A stretch of DNA of 32,000 bases from Okeania sp. (GTDB taxonomy: Bacteria > Cyanobacteriota > Cyanobacteriia > Cyanobacteriales > Microcoleaceae). Of this stretch, positions 4,395-24,781 are shown one piece after another; the first letter of the stretch is position 1; each line of letters starts with the position of its first letter. The position numbers were made by a program, and so were the translations under genes. A model generated the notes under the pieces. It was not told the origin of the DNA. It did no database searches and worked only from the letters and a program-made list of their open reading frames with translations. The DNA lies in NCBI RefSeq assembly GCF_035285525.1, contig NZ_JAYKGW010000140.1:22565-54564 (forward strand), written 5' to 3'.

Positions 4395-5039
4395 TTACTT
4401 CTTCCTTCTTCCTTCTTCCTTACTTTTCCATACCCAACCATTAATAGTAAAGCGACTATCTGCAAAATTTTTAGAAGGGCAATTTATTGGTAAAACTTCA
4501 TGCCAATAACGACTAAGAAAGAATACAATAGTGTTATTTTTTACTGCAATCTTTTTAAATGAGTTAGCCTGTTGATAGAGATTATTATTTATTTTTTCAT
4601 CATATAAAACTAATTCTCCCCCAGAAAATTGTTTGGGTTGTTGATAAAAATAATAAACGTAGGTAATTTCTCTTTGAGCAACATTTGGTGTTCCATTATC
4701 ATCATGTGCATGATAATAATTACCATGATTATGAGCTGTTACTTGTGCTTCTATTTTAGCGATAGGAAATTTTTGACGAGCGAGTTTAGCTAAAACTTGA
4801 GGTAAAACTAATTTAATTCGATTACTAATTCTAGCTTTAGAAATAGGTGCTAAATATAATACTTTTGATTTGCGAATATTGGTGTCAGTCAAGCCTGAGC
4901 TAGTGGTACTTTTTTCAAAATAAGGTTCTAGTTTAATTGCAGATTCGAGAATTTTTTGATTTTCTGTCTGAGTTAAAAAATTCTCAATTTTTACACATTT
5001 TGATGGCAGCAGATTTTGATTATATTTGTTTCTAAACAT
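4395..5039 (-). CDS. 2OG-Fe(II) oxygenase superfamily protein (prolyl-hydroxylase/Tpa1-like), short paralog
   Basis: Candidate HxD...H facial triad (HAHDDNG ... RYWHEVLP) and a 2OG-binding Arg context (SRFTINGW). The C-terminal 200 aa align closely with the neighbouring ORF 5389..6306. The last residues (KEEGRRKK) are encoded by a CTTCTTC-type heptamer repeat. Confidence 0.7.
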   Translation of the reverse strand: MFRNKYNQNLLPSKCVKIENFLTQTENQKILESAIKLEPYFEKSTTSSGLTDTNIRKSKVLYLAPISKARISNRIKLVLPQVLAKLARQKFPIAKIEAQVTAHNHGNYYHAHDDNGTPNVAQREITYVYYFYQQPKQFSGGELVLYDEKINNNLYQQANSFKKIAVKNNTIVFFLSRYWHEVLPINCPSKNFADSRFTINGWVWKSKEEGRRKK

Positions 5040-5388: not shown

Positions 5389-6306
5389 TTAATTATTTCT
5401 CCGTATCCAACCATTAATAGTAAAGCGACTATCTGCAAAAGCTTGAGAAGGACAAGTTACTGGCAAAACTTCGTGCATATAACGACTGAGAAAAAATATA
5501 ATACTATTATTGATAGGTTCTATAGTTTTAAATGTTTCAGCTTTAACATAATGTTTTCCTTTAATTTTACTATCATAAATTATTAATTCGCCTCCGGTAA
5601 ATGCTTTAGGTTCTCGATAGAAATAGTAAACATAAGTCAGAGTTCTCGTAGCAGTATCAGGAGAACCATTATCATTATGAATTTTATAGAAATTATTATC
5701 GTTATGAGCTGTTAACTGACTTTCAATTTCAGCAATTGTAAATGGAGAAATATTTAATTGTTTTAAGACATCAGGAAAGATTTCTGCAATTTTTTTGATT
5801 ATTAATTCTCGAAATTTTGGGAAATAATGCAATACTAAAGAACGACGATAATTTTCAGCTTTAGTTGATGTTGTAGTTGGCACAAAATCTGATTTACTTT
5901 GTAAAATATAGTCTAATAATTGTTGATTTTCTGATTTGGTGAAGAAATTTTCTATCTGTAAATAACGAGATTCTAAATTATCTTTTGTAGGAGTATAAGT
6001 TTTAATATTAGATATACTTTCTTGTGGTTGTAAATTCTGCAAATAAATTGGTGGTTCAGTTACCATTCCGACTAAATTTTCACTAGGAAAACATAAAGCA
6101 GCATGACCTTCTGCTAGAGGAATTTGAAATAGGGTAGAATTTTCAGTTTTTTGATGTTTAGATAATAATGTTTTAGCTAAAAGTTGGAGTAAGGGTGCAT
6201 CAGATTTGAGATAAATAGTATATTGATGTCCTCCCATTAATAATAGTTGAATTTTTATTTCTTGTGCTATATTTTGTGGTGATGTAGCTGTCATAATTTT
6301 TGCCAA
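5389..6306 (-). CDS. 2OG-Fe(II) oxygenase superfamily protein, long paralog with an N-terminal extension of about 100 aa
   Basis: KIHNDNG ... RYMHEVLP ... SRFTINGW. LTYVYYFYREPKAFTGGELIIYD here parallels ITYVYYFYQQPKQFSGGELVLYD in the downstream paralog. Confidence 0.7.
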   Translation of the reverse strand: MAKIMTATSPQNIAQEIKIQLLLMGGHQYTIYLKSDAPLLQLLAKTLLSKHQKTENSTLFQIPLAEGHAALCFPSENLVGMVTEPPIYLQNLQPQESISNIKTYTPTKDNLESRYLQIENFFTKSENQQLLDYILQSKSDFVPTTTSTKAENYRRSLVLHYFPKFRELIIKKIAEIFPDVLKQLNISPFTIAEIESQLTAHNDNNFYKIHNDNGSPDTATRTLTYVYYFYREPKAFTGGELIIYDSKIKGKHYVKAETFKTIEPINNSIIFFLSRYMHEVLPVTCPSQAFADSRFTINGWIRRNN

Positions 6307-9552: not shown

Positions 9553-11232
9553 ATGACAGAAAAATTAACAGCTATGAGTCAAAATTCAATAAAAATTATT
9601 TTCAACAAGCTGAGAAAATATAGTCCAACTATTCTCAGTACCACATTATTTATTGCTAATCCTGCTCAGGCTATTCCCCCAGCACAAATTACCCAAACAT
9701 CTGGTTCTCTACCAATAGATGACTCCTCATTAACAATACCTGGTGTATCAGAGCTAGAAGCAGAACAGCTAATGGAGCAGGTAACATCTGTCTCTCAATT
9801 ATCAGACGTACAACCTACAGATTGGGCATTTCAAGCATTACAATCATTAGTCGAACGTTATGGTTGTATCGCAGGTTATCCCGACGGAACCTACAAAGGC
9901 AACCGCGCCATGACTCGCTATGAATTTGCAGCAGGTTTAAATGCTTGCCTAGACAGAATCACAGAATTAATTGGAGCAAGAGACGATCTAGTTACCAGAG
10001 AAGACTTAAGTGTATTGCAACGTTTACAAGAAGAATTTGCGGCCGAACTAGCAGCATTGCGAGGGCGTGTAGATGGTTTGGAAGCACGCACAGCAGAATT
10101 AGAAAGTAATCAATTTTCTACAACCACCAAACTTAATGGAGAAGTTCTGTTTTGGTTGAGTGATACCTTCGGAGACAGAGCAGAAGCAGGTGGAGTATCT
10201 TCTGCTAACGATCCAACTCAAACTTTCTTTGCTTATCGCGTTAGGTTAAACTTTGAGACTAGCTTTACTGGAGAAGATTTACTCTTCACTCGTCTACAAG
10301 CAAATAATACTCCTGACATCAGTACACCGGAATTAACCAATACTTTAATGACTCTTTCCGGTATTGATGAAGGCGATGGTAGTAATAATGTTGGTCTTGA
10401 CCTGATGTTCTATAAGTTTCCCATTAGCGATCGCCTCCAAGCTATAATTGGAATTGTGGGAACTGGTTTAGATGACCTTTCTGAAGTTCTTTCACCCTTT
10501 ACCGATGAAGGAAACGGGACAATTTCTAGATTCGGGCGACGTAACCCCACCAGTTTCCGGGGACCAGCTAATGCAGGTGTAGGTTTTAGCTACGCATTTA
10601 ATGATGTGTTTCGCGTCAATATAGGTTATTTAGGAGACGATCCAGCAAATCCTGGTGATGGTGCCGGATTATTCAATGGTGCTTACAGTGCATTAGGTCA
10701 AATTGTCGTTGAACCATCAGATAGTTTGGCATTTACCCTGGGTTATGTGCGTAAATATTGGGGTAAAGATGGGGTTGATATTACTAACGGTACTGGTAGT
10801 TTCAATGCTCAAGATCCTTTTGATGGTGCTGCGACTACTGCTGATAACCTTGGTTTCCAAGTTAATTGGAAAGTGAGTCAAAAGTTTGAAATAGGAGGTT
10901 GGTTTGGTTCTACCTGGGCACGTCCTGTATCTGGAGATAGTGATGATGTGACTATTCTGAATGGAATGTTTTATCTTGCTTTCCCAGATTTGTTCAAAGA
11001 AGGAAATCTGGGTGGTTTGATGGTTGGTGTACCTCCTACTATTACTAATGGCGGTGATAATAGTTCATTGGAAGATGATAATACATCTCTACATATAGAA
11101 GCAATTTATCGTTTTCAAGTTAATGATAATATTTCTGTGACTCCTGGTTTATTTGTGATTACTAATCCTAATCACGATGATGTTAATGATACTATTTGGA
11201 TTGGTACTCTCCGCACTCAGTTTGTGTTTTAA
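9553..11232 (+). CDS. Outer-membrane porin: SLH domain, coiled coil and OprB-type beta-barrel
   Basis: Signal-like N-terminus, an SLH motif (VQPTDWAFQALQSLVERYGCIAGYPDGTYKGNRAMTRYEFAAGLNACLDRI), a coiled-coil stretch (LQEEFAAELAALRGRVDGLEARTAELE), an aromatic/Gly-rich barrel and a terminal Phe. Confidence 0.85.
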   Translation: MTEKLTAMSQNSIKIIFNKLRKYSPTILSTTLFIANPAQAIPPAQITQTSGSLPIDDSSLTIPGVSELEAEQLMEQVTSVSQLSDVQPTDWAFQALQSLVERYGCIAGYPDGTYKGNRAMTRYEFAAGLNACLDRITELIGARDDLVTREDLSVLQRLQEEFAAELAALRGRVDGLEARTAELESNQFSTTTKLNGEVLFWLSDTFGDRAEAGGVSSANDPTQTFFAYRVRLNFETSFTGEDLLFTRLQANNTPDISTPELTNTLMTLSGIDEGDGSNNVGLDLMFYKFPISDRLQAIIGIVGTGLDDLSEVLSPFTDEGNGTISRFGRRNPTSFRGPANAGVGFSYAFNDVFRVNIGYLGDDPANPGDGAGLFNGAYSALGQIVVEPSDSLAFTLGYVRKYWGKDGVDITNGTGSFNAQDPFDGAATTADNLGFQVNWKVSQKFEIGGWFGSTWARPVSGDSDDVTILNGMFYLAFPDLFKEGNLGGLMVGVPPTITNGGDNSSLEDDNTSLHIEAIYRFQVNDNISVTPGLFVITNPNHDDVNDTIWIGTLRTQFVF

Positions 11233-14804: not shown

Positions 14805-14832
14805 GTAGGGACGTTCCATGGAACGTCCCTAC
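14805..14832. repeat. Perfect 28-bp palindrome GTAGGGACGTTCCATGGAACGTCCCTAC
   Basis: Read directly from the sequence. It lies between convergent genes that end at 14626 and 14874. A related half-copy (GCAACGTCTCTAC) follows at about 14843. Confidence 0.8.
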
Positions 14833-14873: not shown

Positions 14874-16508
14874 CTAAACACCCATTAAACTTAGCTCTTC
14901 TGACAAAGCATCTATAGTGAAGCGGATTTGCTCCTCTGTATGATTACAAGTGATAAAAAAGCGTAGTCTGGCTGCATTTTGTGGTACAGATGGGTAAAAC
15001 ATAAACGGAACATTAATCCCTCGTTTAAATAAACTTTGGGATAACATTACCGACTTAGTAGACTCCCCTACAATAATAGGTATCACTGGAGAATCTTTAC
15101 TCATACCAGTATTTAACCCTTGTTCGCGAGCGCACTGCAAAAATAGTCGAGACCTTTCCTGTAGTCGCGCGACTCTTTCTGGTTCCCTCTTCAATAGTTG
15201 AATAGAAGCTAATACTGATGCTGTATCTGGTGGAGAAATACCTACACTATAAACAAATCCTGGAGAAGTATATTTAAGATATTGTACTAATGCTTTACTG
15301 CCAGCAATATAACCACCACAACTAGCAAAAGATTTACTCAGAGTACCCATCCAAATATCAACATCATTAGGATTGATCGCACAATACTCACTCACACCGC
15401 GACCAGATTTCCCAATAGTACCGATAGAGTGAGCTTCATCTACCATCAAAAAAGCCTTATAATGTTTTTTGATCTCAATAAACTTTGGTAAGTCTGGAAT
15501 ATCACCATCTGTACTATACACACCTTCGACCGCAATAAGTACCCGCTTATAACGATGACGGCGATCGCTTAATAACTTATCTAAAGCTTCCCAGTCATTA
15601 TGAGGAAAAGCAATAATAGTTGCCCCTGATAATAAACAACCTTGGAAAATACTATTGTGACTTAAAGAGTCATGGAGAATTAAATCATTTTGTCCGAACA
15701 AATGACTAATAGTAGTTACATTAGTTGCATGACCACCCACATAAAGAATGCTATCTTCAACCCCAATAAAATCAGCAATTTCTCTTTCTAATTCCTGATG
15801 TAATGGCTTTTCTCCTGATAATAACCTACTAGCAGAAACGGAAGTTCCATAAAGGTTAATAGCTTCCTTTGCAGCATTAGAAACAAAAGGGTCGCCACAC
15901 ATACCTAAATAATTATAGGTCGCATAATTTATTAGCTCTTTACCACCAATAACTGTAGTATTATTATTAATCCGTTCTTGAGGTATAAAAAAAGGATTTC
16001 CAATACCAGTAGAATTAAAATAAGCTAATTGCTGTTGCAGTTGTACATATTCTGGATAGAGGTGAAAATTATAATAATCTAAAGGAATTTCTTTAGTTTC
16101 TGTAGTTGGATTAGAAGTTGAGACCTCAACCTCATCTTCTAATTTTTTATGGATATTTGGCCCTGTATCCTCGGAAGTATCTTCTACTAAATATTCAGCC
16201 AAGGACTCAATGGTAGGATAATCTAACAAAAGAGTAGGAGGCAGTCGCCGACCCAGAAGATTTTCTAATTCTCCAGAAAGATTGACCACTTCAATTGAGT
16301 TAAGACCATATTCAGTAAAATCCCGCTGAATATCTATCTCATTGGTTTCCAATTCTAGCCGTTCAGCTAATTGGGAGACCAACCAGGATTTGATATTTTC
16401 TCTGACTGGAGATGATTGTGGGACTTGCAAAGCAGGGTCTCGATCATTTTTCACTATAGTCAGGTTTTGGCCGTCTTGGTCATTCATAAGCTGGTTCAAC
16501 AGTTTCAT
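14874..16508 (-). CDS. ACP-fused alpha-oxoamine synthase (8-amino-7-oxononanoate synthase/serine palmitoyltransferase family, PLP-dependent)
   Basis: The N-terminal carrier domain has a phosphopantetheine-site motif (FTEYGLNSIEVVNL). The C-terminal domain carries alpha-oxoamine synthase motifs (GGHATN, MVDEAHSIG, PLP-lysine GTLSKSFASCGGY, RLRFFITCNHT). Confidence 0.85.
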   Translation of the reverse strand: MKLLNQLMNDQDGQNLTIVKNDRDPALQVPQSSPVRENIKSWLVSQLAERLELETNEIDIQRDFTEYGLNSIEVVNLSGELENLLGRRLPPTLLLDYPTIESLAEYLVEDTSEDTGPNIHKKLEDEVEVSTSNPTTETKEIPLDYYNFHLYPEYVQLQQQLAYFNSTGIGNPFFIPQERINNNTTVIGGKELINYATYNYLGMCGDPFVSNAAKEAINLYGTSVSASRLLSGEKPLHQELEREIADFIGVEDSILYVGGHATNVTTISHLFGQNDLILHDSLSHNSIFQGCLLSGATIIAFPHNDWEALDKLLSDRRHRYKRVLIAVEGVYSTDGDIPDLPKFIEIKKHYKAFLMVDEAHSIGTIGKSGRGVSEYCAINPNDVDIWMGTLSKSFASCGGYIAGSKALVQYLKYTSPGFVYSVGISPPDTASVLASIQLLKREPERVARLQERSRLFLQCAREQGLNTGMSKDSPVIPIIVGESTKSVMLSQSLFKRGINVPFMFYPSVPQNAARLRFFITCNHTEEQIRFTIDALSEELSLMGV

Positions 16509-16562
16509 TGTTCACTCCTGCACCACGTTAAAATTGCTTGTCACTTAGTTTTGCCTAGTAGC

Positions 16563-16583
16563 TTATCAGTTATCAGTTATCAG
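16563..16583 (-). repeat. (CTGATAA)3 heptamer tract, sense with gene 14874..16508, about 55 nt upstream of its start
   Basis: The + strand reads TTATCAGTTATCAGTTATCAG. Confidence 0.85.
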
Positions 16584-16806
16584 TCAAAAAGTCCATGAAT
16601 AAAATCAGAAATAAAATTTCTGGGTTTATGGAGAGTAACTTTCTGACTGGCAATTACCTAAAATTGCTAACTATTTCCACTGATTGACCCAAAAAAAAAC
16701 ACTAGGGGAAGTTACGATGGCTATTGTGCCATCATCTTATACAAAGTAGGAAGGAAGAAGGAAGAAGGAAGAAGTTTTTTGAAGTTAGAAGTCAGAAGTT
16801 AAATTC

Positions 16807-16895
16807 AGGACTTACGCAGAACCACCATATTTAGTAGGGGCAAATGGTATTTACCTCTACAGATAGCGCATTATTTCAGAATTTGCGTAAGTTCT
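16807..16895. mobile_element. MITE-like element (AGGACTTACGCA...TGCGTAAGTTCT)
   Basis: The terminal inverted repeats are read directly. It sits in the spacer between the alpha-oxoamine synthase and FAAL genes. Confidence 0.7.
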
Positions 16896-16906
16896 GATTA
16901 TAGTGG

Positions 16907-17096
16907 ACTGACACACCTAAAAATCTAGTTTGGAATGTAGGTTGGGTTGAGGGACGAAACCCAACAAAACCTTAATATTTTTGGCTTTCATCCCATGCTG
17001 CGCAACGCTGACGGGTTTCCTGACGGAATACTCCACAAACAAACATATCGCGGAGTGCGAAACAACCCAACCTACGCTTATTGCACTAGCTCTCTT
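16907..17096 (-). mobile_element. MITE-like element, second family (ACTGACA-ACCTAAAAAT ... AACCCAACCTACGCTTATTGCAC)
   Basis: Its ends and the internal GTTGGGTT..GGGACGAAACCCAAC core match the element at 23570-23695 in inverted orientation. Confidence 0.65.
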
Positions 17097-17202
17097 AACC
17101 GAAAAGTACCAGCTTTTCACAACATAAAAAGGCTAAAACCTTTATATGTAAAGACTTTTAGATTTAATTAACAAGCCCTAATTATTAATTATTAATTATT
17201 AA

Positions 17203-19041
17203 TTATTCAAATACTTGTAAAGTTCCGTTTAAAAAGCCTTCCCGACAAGCATAACGCTGGACTTTTCCACTAGAAGTTTTGGGGATAGCTCCTGGTTTCA
17301 GGAACAATATTCGATAAATCTGTAAATCGTGATTTCTGGATACAGACCTTTGGATAGATTTAATTAAGTCTTCATAATTATCAGGATTTTCTGTCCCATA
17401 CTTACCATTACGCTCACTGAAAAAATCAATCTCTATTGACGCAAGAGATTCATTAGTCAATCCGTACTTTTGACTTTTGACTTTTAATTTTTGACTTCCA
17501 TAGAGTAATTGCCGAAAATTACGTTCTACCTCAGCTACTATAACCAAACGTTCCTCTCCAGCAACTTCTAAAGAAAAACTAGCAGTACAACCTGGTCTAA
17601 TCAGAGGGTGACTTTGTTCTACAGTATATTCAATATCTTGAGGATAATGATTCCGACCATTAATAATAATCACATCTTTAAGACGACCAGTCACAAATAA
17701 TTCCCCTGCTTTCAGAAAGCCTAAATCTCCAGTTCTCATAAATGGTTGGGGAGCTTCAGCTAAATAAGCCTCAAAAATTTGCTTCGTTTCTTCTGGTTTG
17801 TGCCAATAACCCTGAGCAATACTTGGCCCCGATACCCAAATTTCTCCCACCTCTCCCTCCGCACAAAGAGTTAATTTTTGGGGATGGACAATTCTAATCT
17901 GTTGCTCTGATAAAGTTTGTCCACAACCGACTAATGTTTTGGTTCCTTCTGTTTGAGAAACTGAGACGATCTGGTTTTGTTCTAATCCACTAGCTGCAAT
18001 AGTAGTTTTTACTGGTGGAGAAAATTTATTACCTCCAGAAATAATTAGGGTGGCCTCTGCCATCCCATAGCATGGATAAAAAGCTTCTGGACGAAAACCA
18101 CAAACAGCAAAAGTATTAGTAAATCGTTCTAAAACTTCGGCACTAATAGGTTCTGCACCATTAAAAGCTACTTCCCAACTACTTAAATCTAAAGTTTGTA
18201 TCTGTTCTGGCTTAATTTTACGGACACATAAATCATAAGCAAAGTTGGGTCCACCACTGGTAGTACCTCGGTATCGAGAAATAGCTTGTAACCAACGCAC
18301 TGGACTTTGGAGGAACATTAGGGGAGACATAAGAATGACAGGGAAACGTCCATATAAAGGTTGTAATATTCCACCAATTAAACCCATATCGTGATATGGA
18401 GGTAGCCAGATTATGCCTTTACTTTGGAGAGAATGTCCAAAACATTGATGGATTAGACCAGAATTATGTAAAAGATTCTGATGGGTAATCATTACGCCTT
18501 TGGGTGTGGCGGTGGAACCGGAAGTATATTGAAGAAAGGCAAGGGTCTTTTCGTTAATAGTGGGTTTTTGCCATTTCTCAGCCAAACTTTCAGGAATATG
18601 GTCAGTGGCTAACCAACCTAAATTATCTAATTCTGGAGTTTCTGAAGCGCGACGTTCGAGACTAGAGATGATAGACTTAGTTGTTAAAGCTATTGTGGCC
18701 TTGCTGTCTCTAATAATTGTTTGGATACGTTCTAAGGAACGATTTGGTCTAGGTGGATAGGCGGGAACTGCTATGATTCCGGCATAGAGACATCCAAAGA
18801 AGGCGGTAATATATTCGAGTCCCGGTTGATAGAGGAGTAGGGCAACTTCTCCTGGTGGACATACTGATTGGAGGTAGGCGGCGATCGCTCGTGAATATTG
18901 GTCTAGTTGTTTATAGGTAAGGTTAATTGTGTCTTTTTCTCCATCTATTAAGAAGCTATAACCTATTTGTTTGGGGTTTTGGATAGCTCTGTTTTGTAAT
19001 AAATCTACTAATGTTTTAATTTTTTTATCTAAACTATTCAT
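17203..19041 (-). CDS. Fatty acyl-AMP ligase (FAAL; adenylate-forming enzyme family)
   Basis: 612 aa with adenylation motifs (LQYTSGSTATPKGVMITH; GYWHKPEET; TGDLGF; IPKTSSGKVQR) and the typical FAAL N-terminus (LVDLLQNRA...YSFL.DGE....LTYKQLD). Confidence 0.85.
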   Translation of the reverse strand: MNSLDKKIKTLVDLLQNRAIQNPKQIGYSFLIDGEKDTINLTYKQLDQYSRAIAAYLQSVCPPGEVALLLYQPGLEYITAFFGCLYAGIIAVPAYPPRPNRSLERIQTIIRDSKATIALTTKSIISSLERRASETPELDNLGWLATDHIPESLAEKWQKPTINEKTLAFLQYTSGSTATPKGVMITHQNLLHNSGLIHQCFGHSLQSKGIIWLPPYHDMGLIGGILQPLYGRFPVILMSPLMFLQSPVRWLQAISRYRGTTSGGPNFAYDLCVRKIKPEQIQTLDLSSWEVAFNGAEPISAEVLERFTNTFAVCGFRPEAFYPCYGMAEATLIISGGNKFSPPVKTTIAASGLEQNQIVSVSQTEGTKTLVGCGQTLSEQQIRIVHPQKLTLCAEGEVGEIWVSGPSIAQGYWHKPEETKQIFEAYLAEAPQPFMRTGDLGFLKAGELFVTGRLKDVIIINGRNHYPQDIEYTVEQSHPLIRPGCTASFSLEVAGEERLVIVAEVERNFRQLLYGSQKLKVKSQKYGLTNESLASIEIDFFSERNGKYGTENPDNYEDLIKSIQRSVSRNHDLQIYRILFLKPGAIPKTSSGKVQRYACREGFLNGTLQVFE

Positions 19042-19317
19042 TATTATTAAGGCAGAAGAAAGAAGGAAGAGGGAAGGAAATTATATGAGTCTATGGATCG
19101 ATACCTTATGAGTTTTGGTATTATTAGAACTCTATCGTAGAGTAATTAGAATTTTGTACTTTTTAATCATTTTTTTGAGTAATTTCTAGAGAGTACATTT
19201 GCCAAGATAATACTAACAAAATTAACACAGATAAATTTTTCATTTAGTTTCATGTTTAAGTCTCTCTTTGACTTTTTTTTAAATCGGTAAATCTAAATAT
19301 TTGCCAAAATACTTTTT

Positions 19318-19364
19318 TTCCTGTTCCCTGTTCCCTGTTCCCTGTTCCCTATTCCCTATTCCCT
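19318..19364. repeat. Heptamer tandem repeat (CCCTGTT/CCCTATT)n
   Basis: TTCCTGTTCCCTGTTCCCTGTTCCCTGTTCCCTATTCCCTATTCCCT lies in the divergent FAAL/MEKHLA spacer. The same tract type occurs at 22541-22578. Confidence 0.9.
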
Positions 19365-19443
19365 AAAAATGAAATATTATTTCCTTTTCAAAGGTAAGAA
19401 GTCAAGATAGAATTTATGATCATTAATTGTTGAAAAATTATCA

Positions 19444-19923
19444 ATGACTGAAAATATCTTACATCCCTGGAAACAAGAAACTATAATTCGCCATACTCAA
19501 AGATTATTATTGAGTTATAAATATTGGACTGGTAAATCTCTACTGGATACAGATGGAACTCCAGAATTGATAGCTCAAGCATTATGGGAAGCTCCATTTA
19601 TTGTTTTTTCTCATGGTATGGAATCAGATCCAATTTACAACTATGGTAATCGGAAAGCTCTAGATTTATGGGAAGTCGATTGGGAACAATTAACTCAAAT
19701 GCCTTCAAGATATTCAGCTGAACCAATGGAACAAGAGGAACGTGTGCGAGTTCTTAACGAAGTAACTAGCAATGGTTATATTAGTAATGTTGGAGGTGTG
19801 CGTGTTTCTCGGAGTGGTAAACGAATAAGAGTTTCTAATTTTACCATCTGGAATCTTCTAGATGAAAATCAACAAAAATGTGGTCAAGCTGCTACTTTTA
19901 ATGAGTGGGAGTATATTCAGTAG
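19444..19923 (+). CDS. MEKHLA domain protein
   Basis: The 159-aa sequence ...AQALWEAPFIVFSHGMESDPIYNYGNRKALDLWEVDWEQLTQMPSRYSAEPMEQEERVRVLNEVTSNGYISNVGGVRVSRSGKRI...NFTIWNLLDENQQKCGQAATF matches my recollection of stand-alone cyanobacterial MEKHLA (PAS-like) proteins. Confidence 0.7.
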   Translation: MTENILHPWKQETIIRHTQRLLLSYKYWTGKSLLDTDGTPELIAQALWEAPFIVFSHGMESDPIYNYGNRKALDLWEVDWEQLTQMPSRYSAEPMEQEERVRVLNEVTSNGYISNVGGVRVSRSGKRIRVSNFTIWNLLDENQQKCGQAATFNEWEYIQ

Positions 19924-20271
19924 TTGTGAATTAAGATTAGGGAAAAAATATTAAGTATTTTAGACTTTATTTTCTGTGTAATACTTTACCATTAGAATAC
20001 TGAAGTTAAACAATCTTAAATTGATAATTTTTTTGTTTTTTTTATCTAATAAAACTACTATAAATACTAAGATTAATTTAAATGTTATAATGTCAGTAGT
20101 TAAATAGATACTTTGCCGAAATTACCTGATAAATTAACGAAAAAAATCAATTTAACAGATGGTAAATTAGCCTTACTTAAACCATCAAATCATTAAAATT
20201 AAACTATTGGGAGTGGTCAAAGTTTTCCTGCCGAATGCAGAAATAATAACCATTTTTAGGAATTAAAAAGA

Positions 20272-21655
20272 ATGAAAATTAAAATCCAAAATTTAGGTGT
20301 TTTAAAGGAAGCTGAATTTACTCTTGCCGATTTGACAATTATTTGTGGAGGTAATAATACTGGCAAGACTTATGCTACTTATGCTTTATTTGGATTTTTA
20401 TCTACTTGGAAACGGATACTTTCTATTGATGTTGACGATAAAATTGAGGAGTTACTTGCTGAAGGTGTAATTCACTATTGACATACAAAAATATATTAAA
20501 CAGAGCAAAAAAATAGTTGCTAAAGGTTGTCAAGTATATAGCAAGCAATTACCAAATATTTTTGCAGCAGCACCTGAACGGTTCAAAAAAACAAAATTTG
20601 ATATTATTTTTAATCTGAATAACATTCATTTGAAGAAGGAAGTTAAGGGTAAAATTAGTCTTCCAAGTGGAGAGCTTTTTTCACTTAATAAAAATGATAA
20701 TAGTACAGAACTAGTTGTGACTCTTTTAGTTGAACAAGAAAAAGTAAAAATTCCTACTGAGATTCTTCAACATGTTATTGCAGACGCTCTCAAAGAAATT
20801 ATTTTTTCTCAACTTTTTCCTAGACCTTTTATCGCTAGTGCAGAAAGAACAGGTGCTGCTATTTTTCGTAAAGAGTTAAATTTTGCTCGCAACCGTTTGC
20901 TTGAAGAAATAGGCCAGGCAGATTATAAAATAGATCCAAGAGAGCTTTTATTTAGAGGATATCAAGATTATCCACTTCCAGTTGAACAAAATGTCGAGTT
21001 TACACGGGAACTAGAGACAATTTTCAAAAAACGTAGTTTTCTTTATAATAATCATCCTGAAGTTTTGAATGATTTCGCCGATATTATTGGAGGTGATTAT
21101 ACAGTTACTTCTAATGATGAACTTTATTATCTTCCACAAGGGAAAAGAGTCAAATTATCTATGCTTGAAAGTTCTAGCGCTGTACGTTCTTTACTAGATA
21201 TTGGTTTTTATTTAAAGCACGAAGCTCAACTAGGAGACTTACTAATAATAGATGAACCTGAGTTAAATCTACATCCTGAAAACCAGCGTCGTGTTGCTCG
21301 ACTGTTTGCTCGACTTATTAATCTAGGAATTAAGGTTTTTATTACTACTCATAGTGATTATATTATTAAAGAATTAAATACACTAATTATGCTGAATCAC
21401 GATAAACCTCATCTTAAACGCATTGCTGAGGAAGAGGGTTATCAAAAATCAGAATTAATATCTGCTGAACAGATTAAGGTGTATATTGCGGAAGAAAAAG
21501 ATATTCAACGAGAAGGTAATAAAAGAAAAACTAAATGTCAGAGTTTAACTCTAGCAAATATTGACCCAGAAATGGGTATTGAACCTCGTAGTTTTGATAC
21601 AACTATTGAACAGATGAATCGTATTCAGGAAGCAATAGTCTGGGGCGAAGATTAA
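20272..21655 (+). pseudogene. ABC/AAA_15-AAA_21-type ATPase, interrupted by a +1 frame change near 20468-20481
   Basis: ORF 20272..20481 carries the Walker A motif (ICGGNNTGKTYA). ORF 20630..21655 carries a signature-like SSSAVRS, the Walker B/D-loop LLIIDEPELNLHPENQ and the H-loop ITTHSD. My back-translation of the second frame stays open from 20471 (FTIDIQKYIKQSKKIVAKGCQVYSKQLPNIFAAAPERFKKTKFDIIFNLNNIH-LKKEV...). One missing or extra base therefore joins both parts into one protein of about 460 aa. Confidence 0.7.
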
Positions 21656-22230
21656 TGGTTGATTCTGATATTTCTATCCTTAAAAAGATGATTCAACAGA
21701 CAACTATAGAGAAATTAAAATTTAAAGATAAGAAGAATATTGTCGAACTTAAAGAAGAATCTGATGATTACACTCTAACTATTCATAGAATGCCAGATGA
21801 TAAAGAAGTTATTGTGATTAAGGTAGATAATTTTAGCGCACCAACCACAATTTTTCAGGGAACTAAAAGTGAATGTAAACGTACAGATTTTGTTATTATT
21901 GCTGATATTATCAACAAAGAAAAATTCATCGTCTTTATTGAAATGAAGGCAAAAAAAAAGACATCTAAAGAAAAGGAGATTATTCAGCAATTAAAAGGGG
22001 CACAGTGTTTTGTTGAATATTGTCAAGCAATTGGTAAATCATTTTGGGAGAAACGAAATTTTCTTGATGATTATAAATACCGTTTTGTCAGTTTTAAGAA
22101 TATTAAAATTCCTAAGAAACCAACACGATCTAAATCTAAAAATGCTATTCACGATACTCCAGAAAATATGTTAAAAATTAGCTCCCCAGACTACATTTGT
22201 TTCAATCATGTGATATGGCGCAAAAAATAA
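21655..22230 (+). CDS. Hypothetical 191-aa protein with a PD-(D/E)xK-like nuclease motif, translationally coupled to the ATPase
   Basis: Its ATG overlaps the ATPase stop codon (TAATG at 21653-21657). A candidate restriction-endonuclease-fold core is TDFVIIAD...FIVFIEMKAKK...QQLKGAQ (D ... ExK ... Q). The gene is lysine-rich and AT-rich. Confidence 0.45.
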   Translation: MVDSDISILKKMIQQTTIEKLKFKDKKNIVELKEESDDYTLTIHRMPDDKEVIVIKVDNFSAPTTIFQGTKSECKRTDFVIIADIINKEKFIVFIEMKAKKKTSKEKEIIQQLKGAQCFVEYCQAIGKSFWEKRNFLDDYKYRFVSFKNIKIPKKPTRSKSKNAIHDTPENMLKISSPDYICFNHVIWRKK

Positions 22231-22413
22231 TTCGGGCAATCTGATTAAATTATGAAAAAATTGACAAATAAAAATTTTACCATTTTTAGACTGATAAAAG
22301 GTAAGCGTTTCCTGCGGAATGTTGTGAAACAGCTATTCGCTATCAGCAATAAAAACCTCAACCTTACAACGCTTTTCACTCTCAATGAACCACATCGCCA
22401 TAACCAAAATCTT

Positions 22414-22451
22414 GTAGGGACGTTCGCATTTTTGTTATGCAACGTCCCTAC
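22414..22451. repeat. GTAGGGACGTT...AACGTCCCTAC hairpin repeat
   Basis: GTAGGGACGTTCGCATTTTTGTTATGCAACGTCCCTAC belongs to the same family as the palindrome at 14805. Confidence 0.8.
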
Positions 22452-22582
22452 TCTGGTTTACCGAAATGAAAACCGCTGTAGAACATTTCTAAATCCTGTT
22501 TGCGGAGCATTTCCCTATAGGAAAAATCCTTTGATAATCTCCTGTTCCCTGTTCCCTATTCCCTATTCCCTATTCCCTAGCA

Positions 22583-23446
22583 CTATAAAAATTGTTGCAT
22601 CATCCTTTCTGCTTGAGAATCATAACCACCACCAAATAAATTAAAATGATTCAAAATATGATAGAGATTATAAAGAATTTTCCGTTGCTTATACCCATCA
22701 TCTAAAGACCAAGCTTCATTGTAACCACGATAGAAAGCAGTGGGAAAACCACCAAATAATTCCGTCATCGCCATATCAACTTCGCGATCGCCCCAATAAG
22801 TCGCCGGATCAAAAATCACTGGTTCCCCATCCGCACTCACCGCAGCATTTCCCCCCCATAAATCTCCGTGAACTAAAGAAGGTTGAGGTTGATAACCTGC
22901 TAATATTTCTGGAATAACTTTCAGGAAGCGATCGCCCTGACTAAAACTCCCACCCCTACGTTTTGCTAACTTGAGCTGATAACCAATGCGATATTCTGCC
23001 CAAAATTTTGCCCAGTCTCCACACCAAGTATTTATCTGCGGTGTCGAACCGATAGTATTATTAATATCCCAACCAAACTCATTTTTTCCTTGATAGCGAT
23101 GTAAAGCAGCTAAGTTACGCCCCATCTGTTCCCAAGATTTATCGTTACCGCGACCACCTAAGTCTAACCATTCCAAAACTATATAACAACTATTTCCCTC
23201 AGTTCCATAACAGATAGGTTGAGGAACGCGAATAGTCTGAGTTGAATACATTTGCTTTAATCCTAATGCTTCTGCTCGAAACATTTCCACTAGGGAAGCT
23301 TGATTAATTTTCACAAAATAGTTACGACTGCCATCAGTTAGTTTGTAACCATTATTGATGCAACCTCCACTGACGGAACTATGGTTAGTGACTTCAAAAT
23401 TTTCTCCAGTGACTTCGGTAATATGTTCGGCAATTTTTTTCCACAT
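22583..23446 (-). CDS. Fructosamine/ketosamine-3-kinase family protein
   Basis: 287 aa with GGCINNGYKL, FVKIN, EALGLKQM and the catalytic region LVHGDLWGGNA...DPA.YWGDREVD, all typical of this family. Confidence 0.85.
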   Translation of the reverse strand: MWKKIAEHITEVTGENFEVTNHSSVSGGCINNGYKLTDGSRNYFVKINQASLVEMFRAEALGLKQMYSTQTIRVPQPICYGTEGNSCYIVLEWLDLGGRGNDKSWEQMGRNLAALHRYQGKNEFGWDINNTIGSTPQINTWCGDWAKFWAEYRIGYQLKLAKRRGGSFSQGDRFLKVIPEILAGYQPQPSLVHGDLWGGNAAVSADGEPVIFDPATYWGDREVDMAMTELFGGFPTAFYRGYNEAWSLDDGYKQRKILYNLYHILNHFNLFGGGYDSQAERMMQQFL

Positions 23447-23569
23447 AATATTGTTACTAGACTGAAACAGTTAATTTTCTGGGTAAGTTTCATAAATGAA
23501 GACCTCTCCCCCAACTCCTCTCCTGCTTTTGAGAGAGGCGAAGTCTTCTCCCCTTTCCCTTGTAGGGAA

Positions 23570-23695
23570 GTGCAATAAGCGTAGGTTGGGTTGTTCCCGT
23601 TAGGGTTGCGCAGCAAGGGACGAAACCCAACATTAGTAAAGTTCTGTTGGGTTTTACTTCGTTTAACAAGGGCCTACATTTTTAGGTATGTCAGT
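23570..23695 (+). mobile_element. MITE-like element, second family
   Basis: GTGCAATAAGCGTAGGTTGGGTTG ... GGGACGAAACCCAAC ... ATTTTTAGGTATGTCAGT. It ends 3 nt before the leuB stop codon. Confidence 0.65.
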
Positions 23696-23698
23696 TTA

Positions 23699-24781
23699 CT
23701 ACAAACTCAAAACCTTCAACAAAACTTCTCCCATTTCCTTACATCCCACCTGTTTCATACCCTCCGACATAATATCCCCAGTCCGATAACCCTGCTCCAA
23801 TACCTCAAAAACTCCATTTTCAATTTTGTCTGCTGCCACAGGTTGCTCCAAAGCATAACGTAACATCATTGCTGCACTCAAAACTTGCGCCAAAGGATTA
23901 GCCTTATCCTCCCCTGCAATATCTGGCGCAGAACCATGAACAGGTTCAAAAACCCCTGGCCCAGAAGCACCTAAACTCGCCGAAGGTAACATCCCAATAC
24001 TACCCGTTAACATAGCAGCAGCATCAGACAGAATATCCCCAAATAAATTGCCCGTAACAATAGTATCAAATTGTTTTGGCCAACGAACAAGCTGCATGGC
24101 CGCATTATCTACATATAAATGAGATAATTCCACATCTGGATATTCTGGAGCAAGTAGAGTAAGGCGATCGCGCCACAACTGAGACACTTCCAAAACATTT
24201 GCCTTATCGACGGAACACAACTTACCCCCTCGTTTCTGGGCAGTTTCAAACCCCACCTTAGCAATACGGTCAATTTCTGACTCAGAATAGGCCATCGTAT
24301 TGACACCTCGTTTTTCTCCAGTCTCTGTTTCAAAAACGCCCTTGGGTGTCCCAAAATAGACCCCACCTGTTAATTCTCGGACTACCATGATGTCCACTCC
24401 TTGAACTATTTCTCGTTTGAGAGTCGAAGCATCTATTAATTGGGGCAAAATTTTAGCAGGCCGTAAATTAGCAAATAATCCTAATCCGGCCCTTAGTCCT
24501 AATAGTCCAGTTTCTGGCCGTTGATGGCGAGGTAAGTTATCCCACTTATAACCACCGATGGCTGCTAATAATACGGCATCGCTGTTGCGACACATTTCGA
24601 GAGTTTTTTGAGGTAGAGGTTCTCCAGTAGCGTCAATAGCTACTCCACCGATGGGAGCTTCTTGAAATTCAAAGTTGAAGTTAAATTGGTTGCCAACCAC
24701 TTTCAAAATATCTACCGCCACTGTCATAATTTCAGGGCCAATGCCGTCTCCGGGAAGTAGAGTAATGCGGTAGTTCATCAT
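23699..24781 (-). CDS. leuB: 3-isopropylmalate dehydrogenase
   Basis: 360 aa: [60 protein letters not shown]. Confidence 0.95.

Follow-up and report, generated by a model that had tools for sequence, protein, structure and literature searches.

A candidate anti-phage ATPase-nuclease module of the PDC-M47 family, with a frame-broken ATPase gene, in a metagenome-assembled Okeania genome

The closest described relatives of the locus examined here are operons that pair an OLD-type ABC (ATP-binding cassette) ATPase with a nuclease. The WonAB study (PMC12137116) counts PD-T4-4-like operons in this wider family, next to WonAB itself and the 'OLD-ABC ATPase + novel REase' operons of Krishnan et al. 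2020. A functional anti-phage selection recovered PD-T4-4, which consists of two genes, from Escherichia coli ECOR58, where it lies in an element resembling an integrative and conjugative element (ICE) (Vassallo et al. 2022, PMC9519451). It has been classed as a P-loop/ABC ATPase with a PD-(D/E)xK nuclease (PMC10952713; bioRxiv 2025.07.10.664194), and the purified EcPD-T4-4 complex forms higher-order assemblies and cut none of 11 DNA substrates in vitro (bioRxiv 2025.07.10.664194). In WonAB, mutations in the ATPase motifs of WonA and the K71A mutation of WonB abolish defence and both genes are needed; phage DNA replication still begins, host DNA stays intact and translation halts, and the authors propose rRNA or tRNA as the target. 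WonB is toxic on overproduction only when active WonA is present, and is unstable in a Lon-dependent manner (PMC12137116). A further catalogue of candidates comprises 145 'phage defence candidates' (PDC), which were drawn from genes lying within BREX, DISARM and type I restriction-modification (R-M) loci and added to PADLOC, which are mostly 'solo' systems (Payne et al., bioRxiv 2024.01.29.577857). Here we compare with these systems a two-gene locus at positions 20272-22230 of a 32,000-nucleotide stretch of DNA (the window) from Okeania sp., which is part of contig NZ_JAYKGW010000140.1 of assembly GCF_035285525.1.

Two plus-strand genes fill this interval in the open reading frame (ORF) list, one for an ABC-type ATPase (20272-21655) and one for a 191-aa protein (21655-22230). 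The initial annotation had described them as a co-transcribed pair of an ABC/OLD-type ATPase and a small nuclease of the defence-system type, a description that is in essence borne out, and had been unable to assign them to a named system, which no longer holds, PADLOC-DB having full-length models for both. When its reading frame was repaired, the ATPase matched PDC-M47A at E 1.2e-236 (784 bits, residues 1-461 on profile 1-460 of 461) and PD-T4-4_A at 1.3e-160 (PDLC04033, residues 1-460 on profile 1-457 of 460) and 6e-72 (PDLC04032), with far weaker matches to AriA (2e-27), Old (4e-16), GajA (1e-12), PtuA (1e-10 to 1e-8), NsnB and HEC-02A. The small protein matched PDC-M47B at 3.4e-74 (PDLC04668, residues 4-187 on profile 2-183 of 186), four more PDC-M47B models at 1e-34 to 2e-11, and PD-T4-4_B at 5.8e-6 (PDLC04037, 24 bits, core residues 70-171 only), the last being significant but distant. 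These profile matches place the pair in an already catalogued family, the PADLOC candidate PDC-M47, as an ordinary copy of a predicted PD-T4-4-like ATPase and nuclease anti-phage module and a relative of PD-T4-4 and WonAB. We consider it highly probable that the locus is a chromosomal, translationally coupled, two-gene anti-phage module of this family, composed of an OLD/SMC-type ABC ATPase and a divergent PD-(D/E)xK nuclease, of which the ATPase gene is frame-broken in this copy. Its parts are as follows.

20272-20481, plus strand: 5' part of the ATPase gene (PDC-M47A / PD-T4-4_A-like), 69 codons, Walker A included, ending in a premature TGA at 20479-20481 (ORF list, frame translations).
20473-20475, plus strand: site of the one-base insertion that shifts the ATPase frame, ATTCACTATTGAC as against ATTCG-TATTGA or ATTCA-TATTGAC in relatives (DNA alignment).
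20476-21655, plus strand: rest of the ATPase gene, read in the +1 frame, with about 393 open codons before the TAA at 21653-21655.
21653-21657, plus strand: TAATG stop/start overlap of the two genes, TAA at 21653-21655 and ATG at 21655-21657, just as initially described.
21655-22230, plus strand: gene of the small protein PDC-M47B, 191 aa (PADLOC, alignment, structural model).

The extra base at about 20475 lies outside any homopolymer run and is lacking in all six Okeania and Dapis relatives that were aligned. Its removal restores a 460-aa ATPase, which is the length found in the family (460-465 aa). Programmed frameshifting was weighed and discarded, the extra base being absent from all six close relatives. 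The ATPase gene of this copy is thus disrupted, and PDC-M47 is represented here by one intact gene of its two. In NCBI/GenBank the ATPase appears as a 341-aa fragment only, with a TTG start at 20630 (P0173, MEB3341688.1, 'AAA family ATPase [Okeania sp.]'), and the two genes currently carry the names 'AAA family ATPase', for this truncated call, and 'hypothetical protein'. The source genome is a metagenome-assembled genome (MAG; MEB3341689.1, 'MAG: hypothetical protein VKJ25_13120').

Apart from the frame, every catalytic motif of the ATPase is intact, and the Walker A and B, H-loop and AAA_15/AAA_21 features named in the initial annotation are all present (Pfam AAA_15 3e-25, AAA_21 4e-17; NCBIfam gave ABC-type matches below threshold only).

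20347-20370, plus strand: Walker A, GGNNTGKT, with K32.
20834-20854, plus strand: ASAERTG of the FIASAERTG motif.
21167-21199, plus strand: ESSSAVRSLLD.
From 21239, plus strand: Walker B/D-loop, LLIIDEPELNLHP, with E327 in Walker B.
21350-21352, plus strand: H-loop histidine of ITTHSD.

In 71 full-length ATPase homologues taken from related loci, Walker A is invariant, and CGGNNTGKT, FIASAERTG, ESSSAVRSLLD, LLIIDEPELNLHPENQ, ITTHSDYIIKELN and ITTHSD each reach at least 98% conservation; the window has all of them intact. The protein also has a C-terminal extension of about 80 residues, roughly 380-460. An AlphaFold2 (AF2) model of the Dapis sp. BLCC M229 orthologue P0122 (88% identical; predicted local distance difference test, pLDDT, 75; predicted template modelling score, pTM, 0.76) gave 206 Foldseek matches in the PDB at E<=1e-3. 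PtuA, from Septu and retron systems, ranks first (4e-10), ahead of the retron Eco8 effector, Rad50, RecN and SMC heads, and on this model the ATPase is predicted to have the ABC-ATPase fold. Compared with PDB sequences, it gave only weak Walker B/H-loop matches, to UvrA and PtuA, and no close relative with a solved structure.

In the small protein, the D...ExK string that had been pointed out exists, as D78 and E96-M-K98, and is followed by a conserved helix.

21886-21888, plus strand: D78.
21940-21948, plus strand: E96-M-K98, with E96 at 21940-21942 and K98 at 21946-21948.
Residues 111-116 of the small protein: conserved QQLKGA helix.

Over 52 diverse small-protein homologues, E73, R76, E96, Q112, L113, G115, C118 and Y122 are invariant (52/52), and D78 (51/52), K75 (50/52) and K114 (49/52) are nearly so. 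In the AF2 model (pLDDT 88.2, pTM 0.87) D78 stands just before a strand (79-84), E96-x-K98 ends the next one (90-97), and a long helix (106-129) with the QQLKG sequence and a further strand (141-148) follow, an additional three-stranded N-terminal sheet being placed ahead of the core. The modelled order of strands and helices is that expected of a PD-(D/E)xK core. Several results weigh against a nuclease of this class. Position 98 has K in 37 of the 52 homologues, 13 others having Q and two T, so that the canonical K of ExK is replaced in 15/52, although a change of K to Q is known in bona fide PD-(D/E)xK members such as BglII. Foldseek found no PDB match to the model at or below 1e-3 (best E 0.036) and none better than 9e-3 in the viral library BFVD, and the family profile gave only noise when compared with PDB sequences, for example lactate dehydrogenase. 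The matches below threshold nevertheless fall almost only on PD-(D/E)xK proteins. The top ones in the PDB are McrC, FokI, BsmI, DdmD, Mus81, Avs3, Bse634I, EndoMS, EcoO109I and the hantavirus endonuclease, and those in BFVD are the bunyavirus L (cap-snatching) endonuclease, UL24 and phage PD-(D/E)XK nucleases. Pfam has no match to the small protein of the window; 20 of the 52 homologues have weak HSDR_N_2 matches (best 0.0044) and others match DUF2726, VRR_NUC or PDDEXK_9. The protein has no HNH match in Pfam or PADLOC and matches no AriB or Toprim model in PADLOC, in agreement with the earlier suggestion that the effector differs in class from those of Septu (HNH) and PARIS (Toprim). On this convergent, if weak, evidence from sequence and model, a divergent PD-(D/E)xK nuclease is the most likely identity of the small protein. 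The nuclease fold proposed for it initially is therefore retained as the best reading, with D78, E96 and the core topology of the model in its favour and no Foldseek match at 1e-3 or better; conservation of the D/E/K residues, on which the proposal had been made to depend, holds for D78 and E96 and only in part for K98.

That the two genes would occur together in other genomes had also been part of the original proposal, and this is what is found. A homologue search yielded 128 relatives of the small protein (for the ATPase, the relatives listed were confined to those above 70% identity), and a profile search recovered 806 at E<=1e-3 among 1.84 billion cluster representatives, almost all of them stand-alone proteins of 175-200 aa. 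In a scan of one genome per species, 237 loci had small-protein relatives; 80 of these were examined, and an ATPase homologue lies directly upstream on the same strand in 79, the exception being cut by a contig end. In nearly all the related loci inspected, the two genes meet at TAATG or TGATG. The hosts are mainly filamentous cyanobacteria, and also include Gallionella, Methylococcales, Nitrosomonas, Thiotrichaceae and Chloroflexi. In Nitrosomonas (L068) and a gammaproteobacterium (L074) the pair stands between the N6_N4 methylase (mod) and ResIII (res) genes, that is, inside a type III R-M operon. An Annamia plasmid also has the same pair.

Within the genus the module has a traceable history. 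Nine Okeania, Dapis or related genomes have it to the right of the same fatty acyl-AMP ligase (FAAL) and acyl carrier protein (ACP)-aminotransferase genes, usually with the MEKHLA-domain gene as well, and synteny stops just past the small gene. The DNA identity of the module in those genomes (84-88%) is like that of the flanking genes (84-90%), which points to vertical descent within the genus rather than recent acquisition. Comparison with sister strains, which had been suggested as a check, does reveal presence and absence at the locus: Okeania L081 (693-kb contig) has an empty site, in which FAAL, two short-chain dehydrogenase/reductase (SDR) genes, MEKHLA and another SDR gene are followed by the flavin adenine dinucleotide (FAD)-monooxygenase gene that comes after the module in L005, and no trace of either module gene is present at that locus. 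In L083, a marine-metagenome FAAL orthologue, NiFe-hydrogenase genes are on the module side and neither module gene occurs within the stretch examined. Damaged copies recur: in L006 (Okeania sp. SIO2C9) a MITE-like element (miniature inverted-repeat transposable element) of about 120 bp interrupts the ATPase gene; of that gene only the final 81 codons are left in L023, and the first 119 are missing in L069; the frame changes in L028; and L052 has about 1 kb inserted ahead of a truncated small gene. From these comparisons the module appears as an accessory, dispensable element, of which the predicted nuclease gene often outlives loss of the ATPase.

Some further observations concern the spread of the module and its neighbours. 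Between Okeania and Nostocales or Microcoleus the ATPase has 72-76% identity, as against 59-63% for the neighbouring FAAL and its homologues outside the Okeania/Trichodesmium group, a gap hinting that the module has spread horizontally among cyanobacteria or is under unusually strong constraint; conservation of the small nuclease is far lower than that of the ATPase, at about 55%. In the Nostoc-type loci L012, L014, L017, L018, L020, L021, L033, L034 and L040 the pair is directly preceded, on the same strand, by an ORF of 1144-1199 aa, which where scanned has a Mfd/TRCF domain match (7 members), an adjacency that may reflect either synteny conserved by descent or a favoured site of insertion.

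Other results count against a role in phage defence. A literature search for 'PDC-M47' found no report and hence no experiment on it. The Annamia plasmid is the only match to the small protein in 72,556 plasmids, and 50,697 phage records had no match. The two nearest ORFs on each side of 34 mostly cyanobacterial loci are mainly housekeeping genes with few defence genes among them (HEAT/PBS lyase 11, Mfd/TRCF 7, Uma2 7, DUF2656 6, PDC-S03 5, C5 methylases 3, HicB 3). Pfam scans of the window proteins revealed no other gene for defence or mobility, and there is no defence island or mobile element at the module in the window. The defence or mobile context that was expected of homologues is thus found where the pair lies inside type III R-M operons and is absent from the window itself. 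A module that stands alone does fit the largely 'solo' occurrence of PDCs noted by Payne et al. (bioRxiv 2024.01.29.577857).

By analogy with WonAB and PD-T4-4, a mechanism can be proposed in which the OLD/SMC-type ABC ATPase (gene A) would be the infection sensor and activator and the small, divergent PD-(D/E)xK protein (gene B) the effector. A dimer of A would hold B on its C-terminal extensions, and a phage cue together with ATP binding or hydrolysis would license B, which would then arrest the infected cell (abortive infection), probably by cutting RNA needed for translation and not by degrading DNA. In this MAG the ATPase gene has the one-base insertion after codon 68.

How the broken frame is to be taken bears directly on this copy. 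The break must be recent or an error, because the remaining frame is open for about 393 codons in DNA of 32% GC. As the sequence stands, the module is most likely a recently inactivated pseudogene next to an orphan nuclease, and the copy in this MAG is probably inactive; an active system at the locus is not supported, the ATPase frame being broken by the insertion at about 20475 and closed by the TGA at 20479-20481. A less favoured but quite conceivable account is that the system is intact and functional and that the inserted base is an assembly or consensus error of the MAG or a minority variant. The source being a MAG speaks for this, as does the state of the ATPase gene, which is clean apart from the single indel, with its long open remainder in AT-rich DNA and every catalytic motif intact, and the small-protein gene is intact as well. 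The insertion, however, does not fall within a homopolymer, and the assembly does not seem to be generally indel-prone, because other long genes of the window are full length compared with homologues (for example FAAL, 612 aa, 100% coverage). Moreover, relatives show that the ATPase does get lost, and independently: L006 through a MITE, L023 through a 5' deletion and L069 through a truncation.

The same decayed alleles are informative on what the pair does. Were it a toxin-antitoxin or addiction module, B would be a nuclease toxin and A the antitoxin that neutralises it, the purpose being stabilisation of DNA and not sensing of phage. In favour of this, the Pfam description of AAA_21 reads 'putative AbiEii toxin, Type IV TA system', coupling between the genes is tight, WonB is toxic when overproduced, and HicB antitoxins are now and then nearby. 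Yet in the window, L006, L023, L028 and L069 a broken or truncated A stands next to an intact B, which should be lethal if A were the antitoxin, so that these natural ATPase-minus, nuclease-plus alleles argue against the ATPase as an antidote. WonB toxicity, in addition, requires WonA and its ATPase activity, which according to the authors rules out simple sequestration (PMC12137116), and we regard a toxin-antitoxin function as very unlikely. A housekeeping ABC-ATPase/nuclease for DNA repair or recombination, similar to SbcCD or RecN, rather than for immunity, would agree with the resemblance of the ATPase model to Rad50, RecN and SMC heads, with a chromosomal, solitary module that is syntenic over Okeania and Dapis and as similar as its neighbours (84-88% against 84-90%), and with its position just downstream of a Mfd/TRCF-type gene in at least 7 sampled Nostocales-type loci. 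Its distribution is patchy, however, with an empty site in a congeneric genome, loss-of-function alleles recur, the pair can be embedded within type III R-M operons, and the best profile matches are all to defence families, of which PD-T4-4 was recovered in an anti-phage functional selection (PMC9519451); a housekeeping role is accordingly given very little credence. A more speculative variant, which we hold to be improbable, is that the PDC-M47 clade, which is centred on cyanobacteria, would be a functionally distinct branch of the PD-T4-4/WonAB group whose small nuclease cuts RNA and not DNA, the orphan nuclease of lineages such as this one being kept after ATPase loss for a role of its own, such as stress-induced translation arrest, and not merely on its way to decay. 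A PDC-M47 anti-phage module with a broken ATPase gene is the reading that we prefer.

The flanks of the module and the repeats around it are given below. The ORF positions and the MEKHLA and fructosamine kinase flanks agree with the initial annotation in the ORF list and Pfam.

19444-19923: MEKHLA-domain gene, left flank (Pfam 1.4e-55).
22583-23446, minus strand: fructosamine kinase gene, right flank (Pfam 1.9e-122).
22252-22644, plus strand: 130-aa ORF over the repeat-rich spacer, overlapping the 3' end of the fructosamine kinase gene, no Pfam match; probably not a gene.
19049-19076, intergenic: heptamer array, AAGGAAG x4.
19320-19364, intergenic, left of the MEKHLA gene: heptamer array, CCTGTTC x6.4.
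22541-22579, intergenic, right of the module: heptamer array, CCTATTC x5.6.
22364-22480: MITE-like element of about 120 bp with the palindrome GTAGGGACGTT...AACGTCCCTAC, hairpin at 22414-22451.
14805-14832: second copy of the hairpin.

The GC content of the module (29-32%) is below that of its immediate neighbours (36-44%), so that the 'AT-rich islet' of the initial annotation stands in relation to these; it does not stand in relation to the window, where the mean is 35.1% and nine other genes have 29-34%. The repeats noted on the right side are likewise present and do not bracket the module, a sister array being located at 19320-19364 and a copy of the hairpin at 14805, and they are dispersed, generic cyanobacterial intergenic repeats and not module boundaries. 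The heptamer arrays resemble the short tandemly repeated sequences known in filamentous cyanobacteria, and a copy related to the MITE-like element is found in L006 at 9695-9822, inside the ATPase gene, as an independent inactivation. Direct or inverted repeats bracketing the module were considered as an insertion signature and set aside, the pairs being short, AT-rich and 75-78% identical, which is chance level. A scan of 19900-22700 found 14 promoter-like sites, with 13.1 expected, and no terminators, and Rfam had no match at E<=0.1 in 19000-24000.

Just to the left of the ATPase gene, the roughly 110 bp at 20097-20210 match the 3' end of Sulfotransfer_1 genes of about 300 aa and the sequence that follows them, and look like the remnant of a lost sulfotransferase gene. 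Such genes lie directly upstream of the module in L002, L009 and L010, and L009 has three copies of the stretch (8465, 10648, 12046), behind two sulfotransferase paralogues flanking the module. An apparent 33-bp repeat flanking the module in L005, compared with the empty site of L081, was considered as an attachment (att) site and is tentatively attributed instead to paralogous gene ends in a variable metabolic cluster, sulfotransferase genes flanking the module in relatives. From 14874-19923 of the window and from L081, L005 and L009, the module is seen to border a cluster made up of FAAL, ACP-aminotransferase, MEKHLA, tandem SDR, sulfotransferase and FAD monooxygenase genes, whose content varies between Okeania genomes and which looks like a lipid or secondary-metabolite cluster with paralogue turnover. 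Elsewhere in the window, two adjacent 2-oxoglutarate (2OG)-Fe(II) oxygenase paralogues (4395-5039 and 5389-6306, minus strand, 29-30% GC) lie beside an ABC permease and a NUDIX gene.

As a discovery the locus has little weight, the family already having PADLOC profile models and tested relatives in PD-T4-4 and WonAB. Its use is as annotation and comparative material: two genes can now be named, and they belong to a family that is common in filamentous cyanobacteria, a group in which, to our knowledge, few defence systems have been characterised. The repeated natural loss of the ATPase with retention of the nuclease provides an argument, from genomes only, against a simple toxin-antitoxin reading. 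The same pattern agrees with the finding in WonAB that the nuclease is harmless without its ATPase (PMC12137116).

Among named systems the likeness is closest to PDC-M47, as both proteins match its models end to end and the A-then-B order on one strand is common to both; the difference is the frameshift in the ATPase gene, and PDC-M47 is itself a bioinformatic candidate, proposed by guilt-by-embedding. PD-T4-4 (PD-T4-4_A, RCO57999.1; PD-T4-4_B, RCO57988.1) has the same two-gene composition of ABC ATPase and PD-(D/E)xK nuclease, with a full-length match in the ATPase (1.3e-160), whereas the nuclease is only distantly similar (PD-T4-4_B, 5.8e-6, residues 70-171) and PD-T4-4 lies in an ICE-like, defence-rich locus, the Okeania copy being among metabolic genes of a cyanobacterial host. 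WonAB, from the WASA-1 prophage of V. cholerae (Adams et al. 2025, PMC12137116), is similar in architecture, an OLD-type ABC ATPase with a C-terminal extension being followed by a small variant PD-(D/E)xK protein; the likeness to WonA (AWB73975.1) and WonB (AWB73976.1) is taken from the grouping of PD-T4-4-like operons with WonAB in that report, the invariant Arg in the A-E-R-T-G motif of the ATPase may by analogy correspond to the essential R182 of WonA, and WonAB differs in being prophage-borne. Septu and retron PtuAB have in common with the locus the logic of an ABC ATPase with a small nuclease, and PtuA is the closest solved structure to the ATPase model (Foldseek 4e-10), but PtuB is an HNH nuclease, which the small protein is not, and the PtuA profile matches are weak (1e-10 to 1e-8) and mostly of partial coverage. 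PARIS (AriA/AriB), Gabija (GajA) and OLD, finally, contain the AAA_15/AAA_21 ABC ATPase module that is also found here (AriA 2e-27, Old 4e-16, GajA 1e-12), and differ in using Toprim effectors, as a fused domain or in AriB, where the Okeania pair instead has a small protein that is most likely of the PD-(D/E)xK type.

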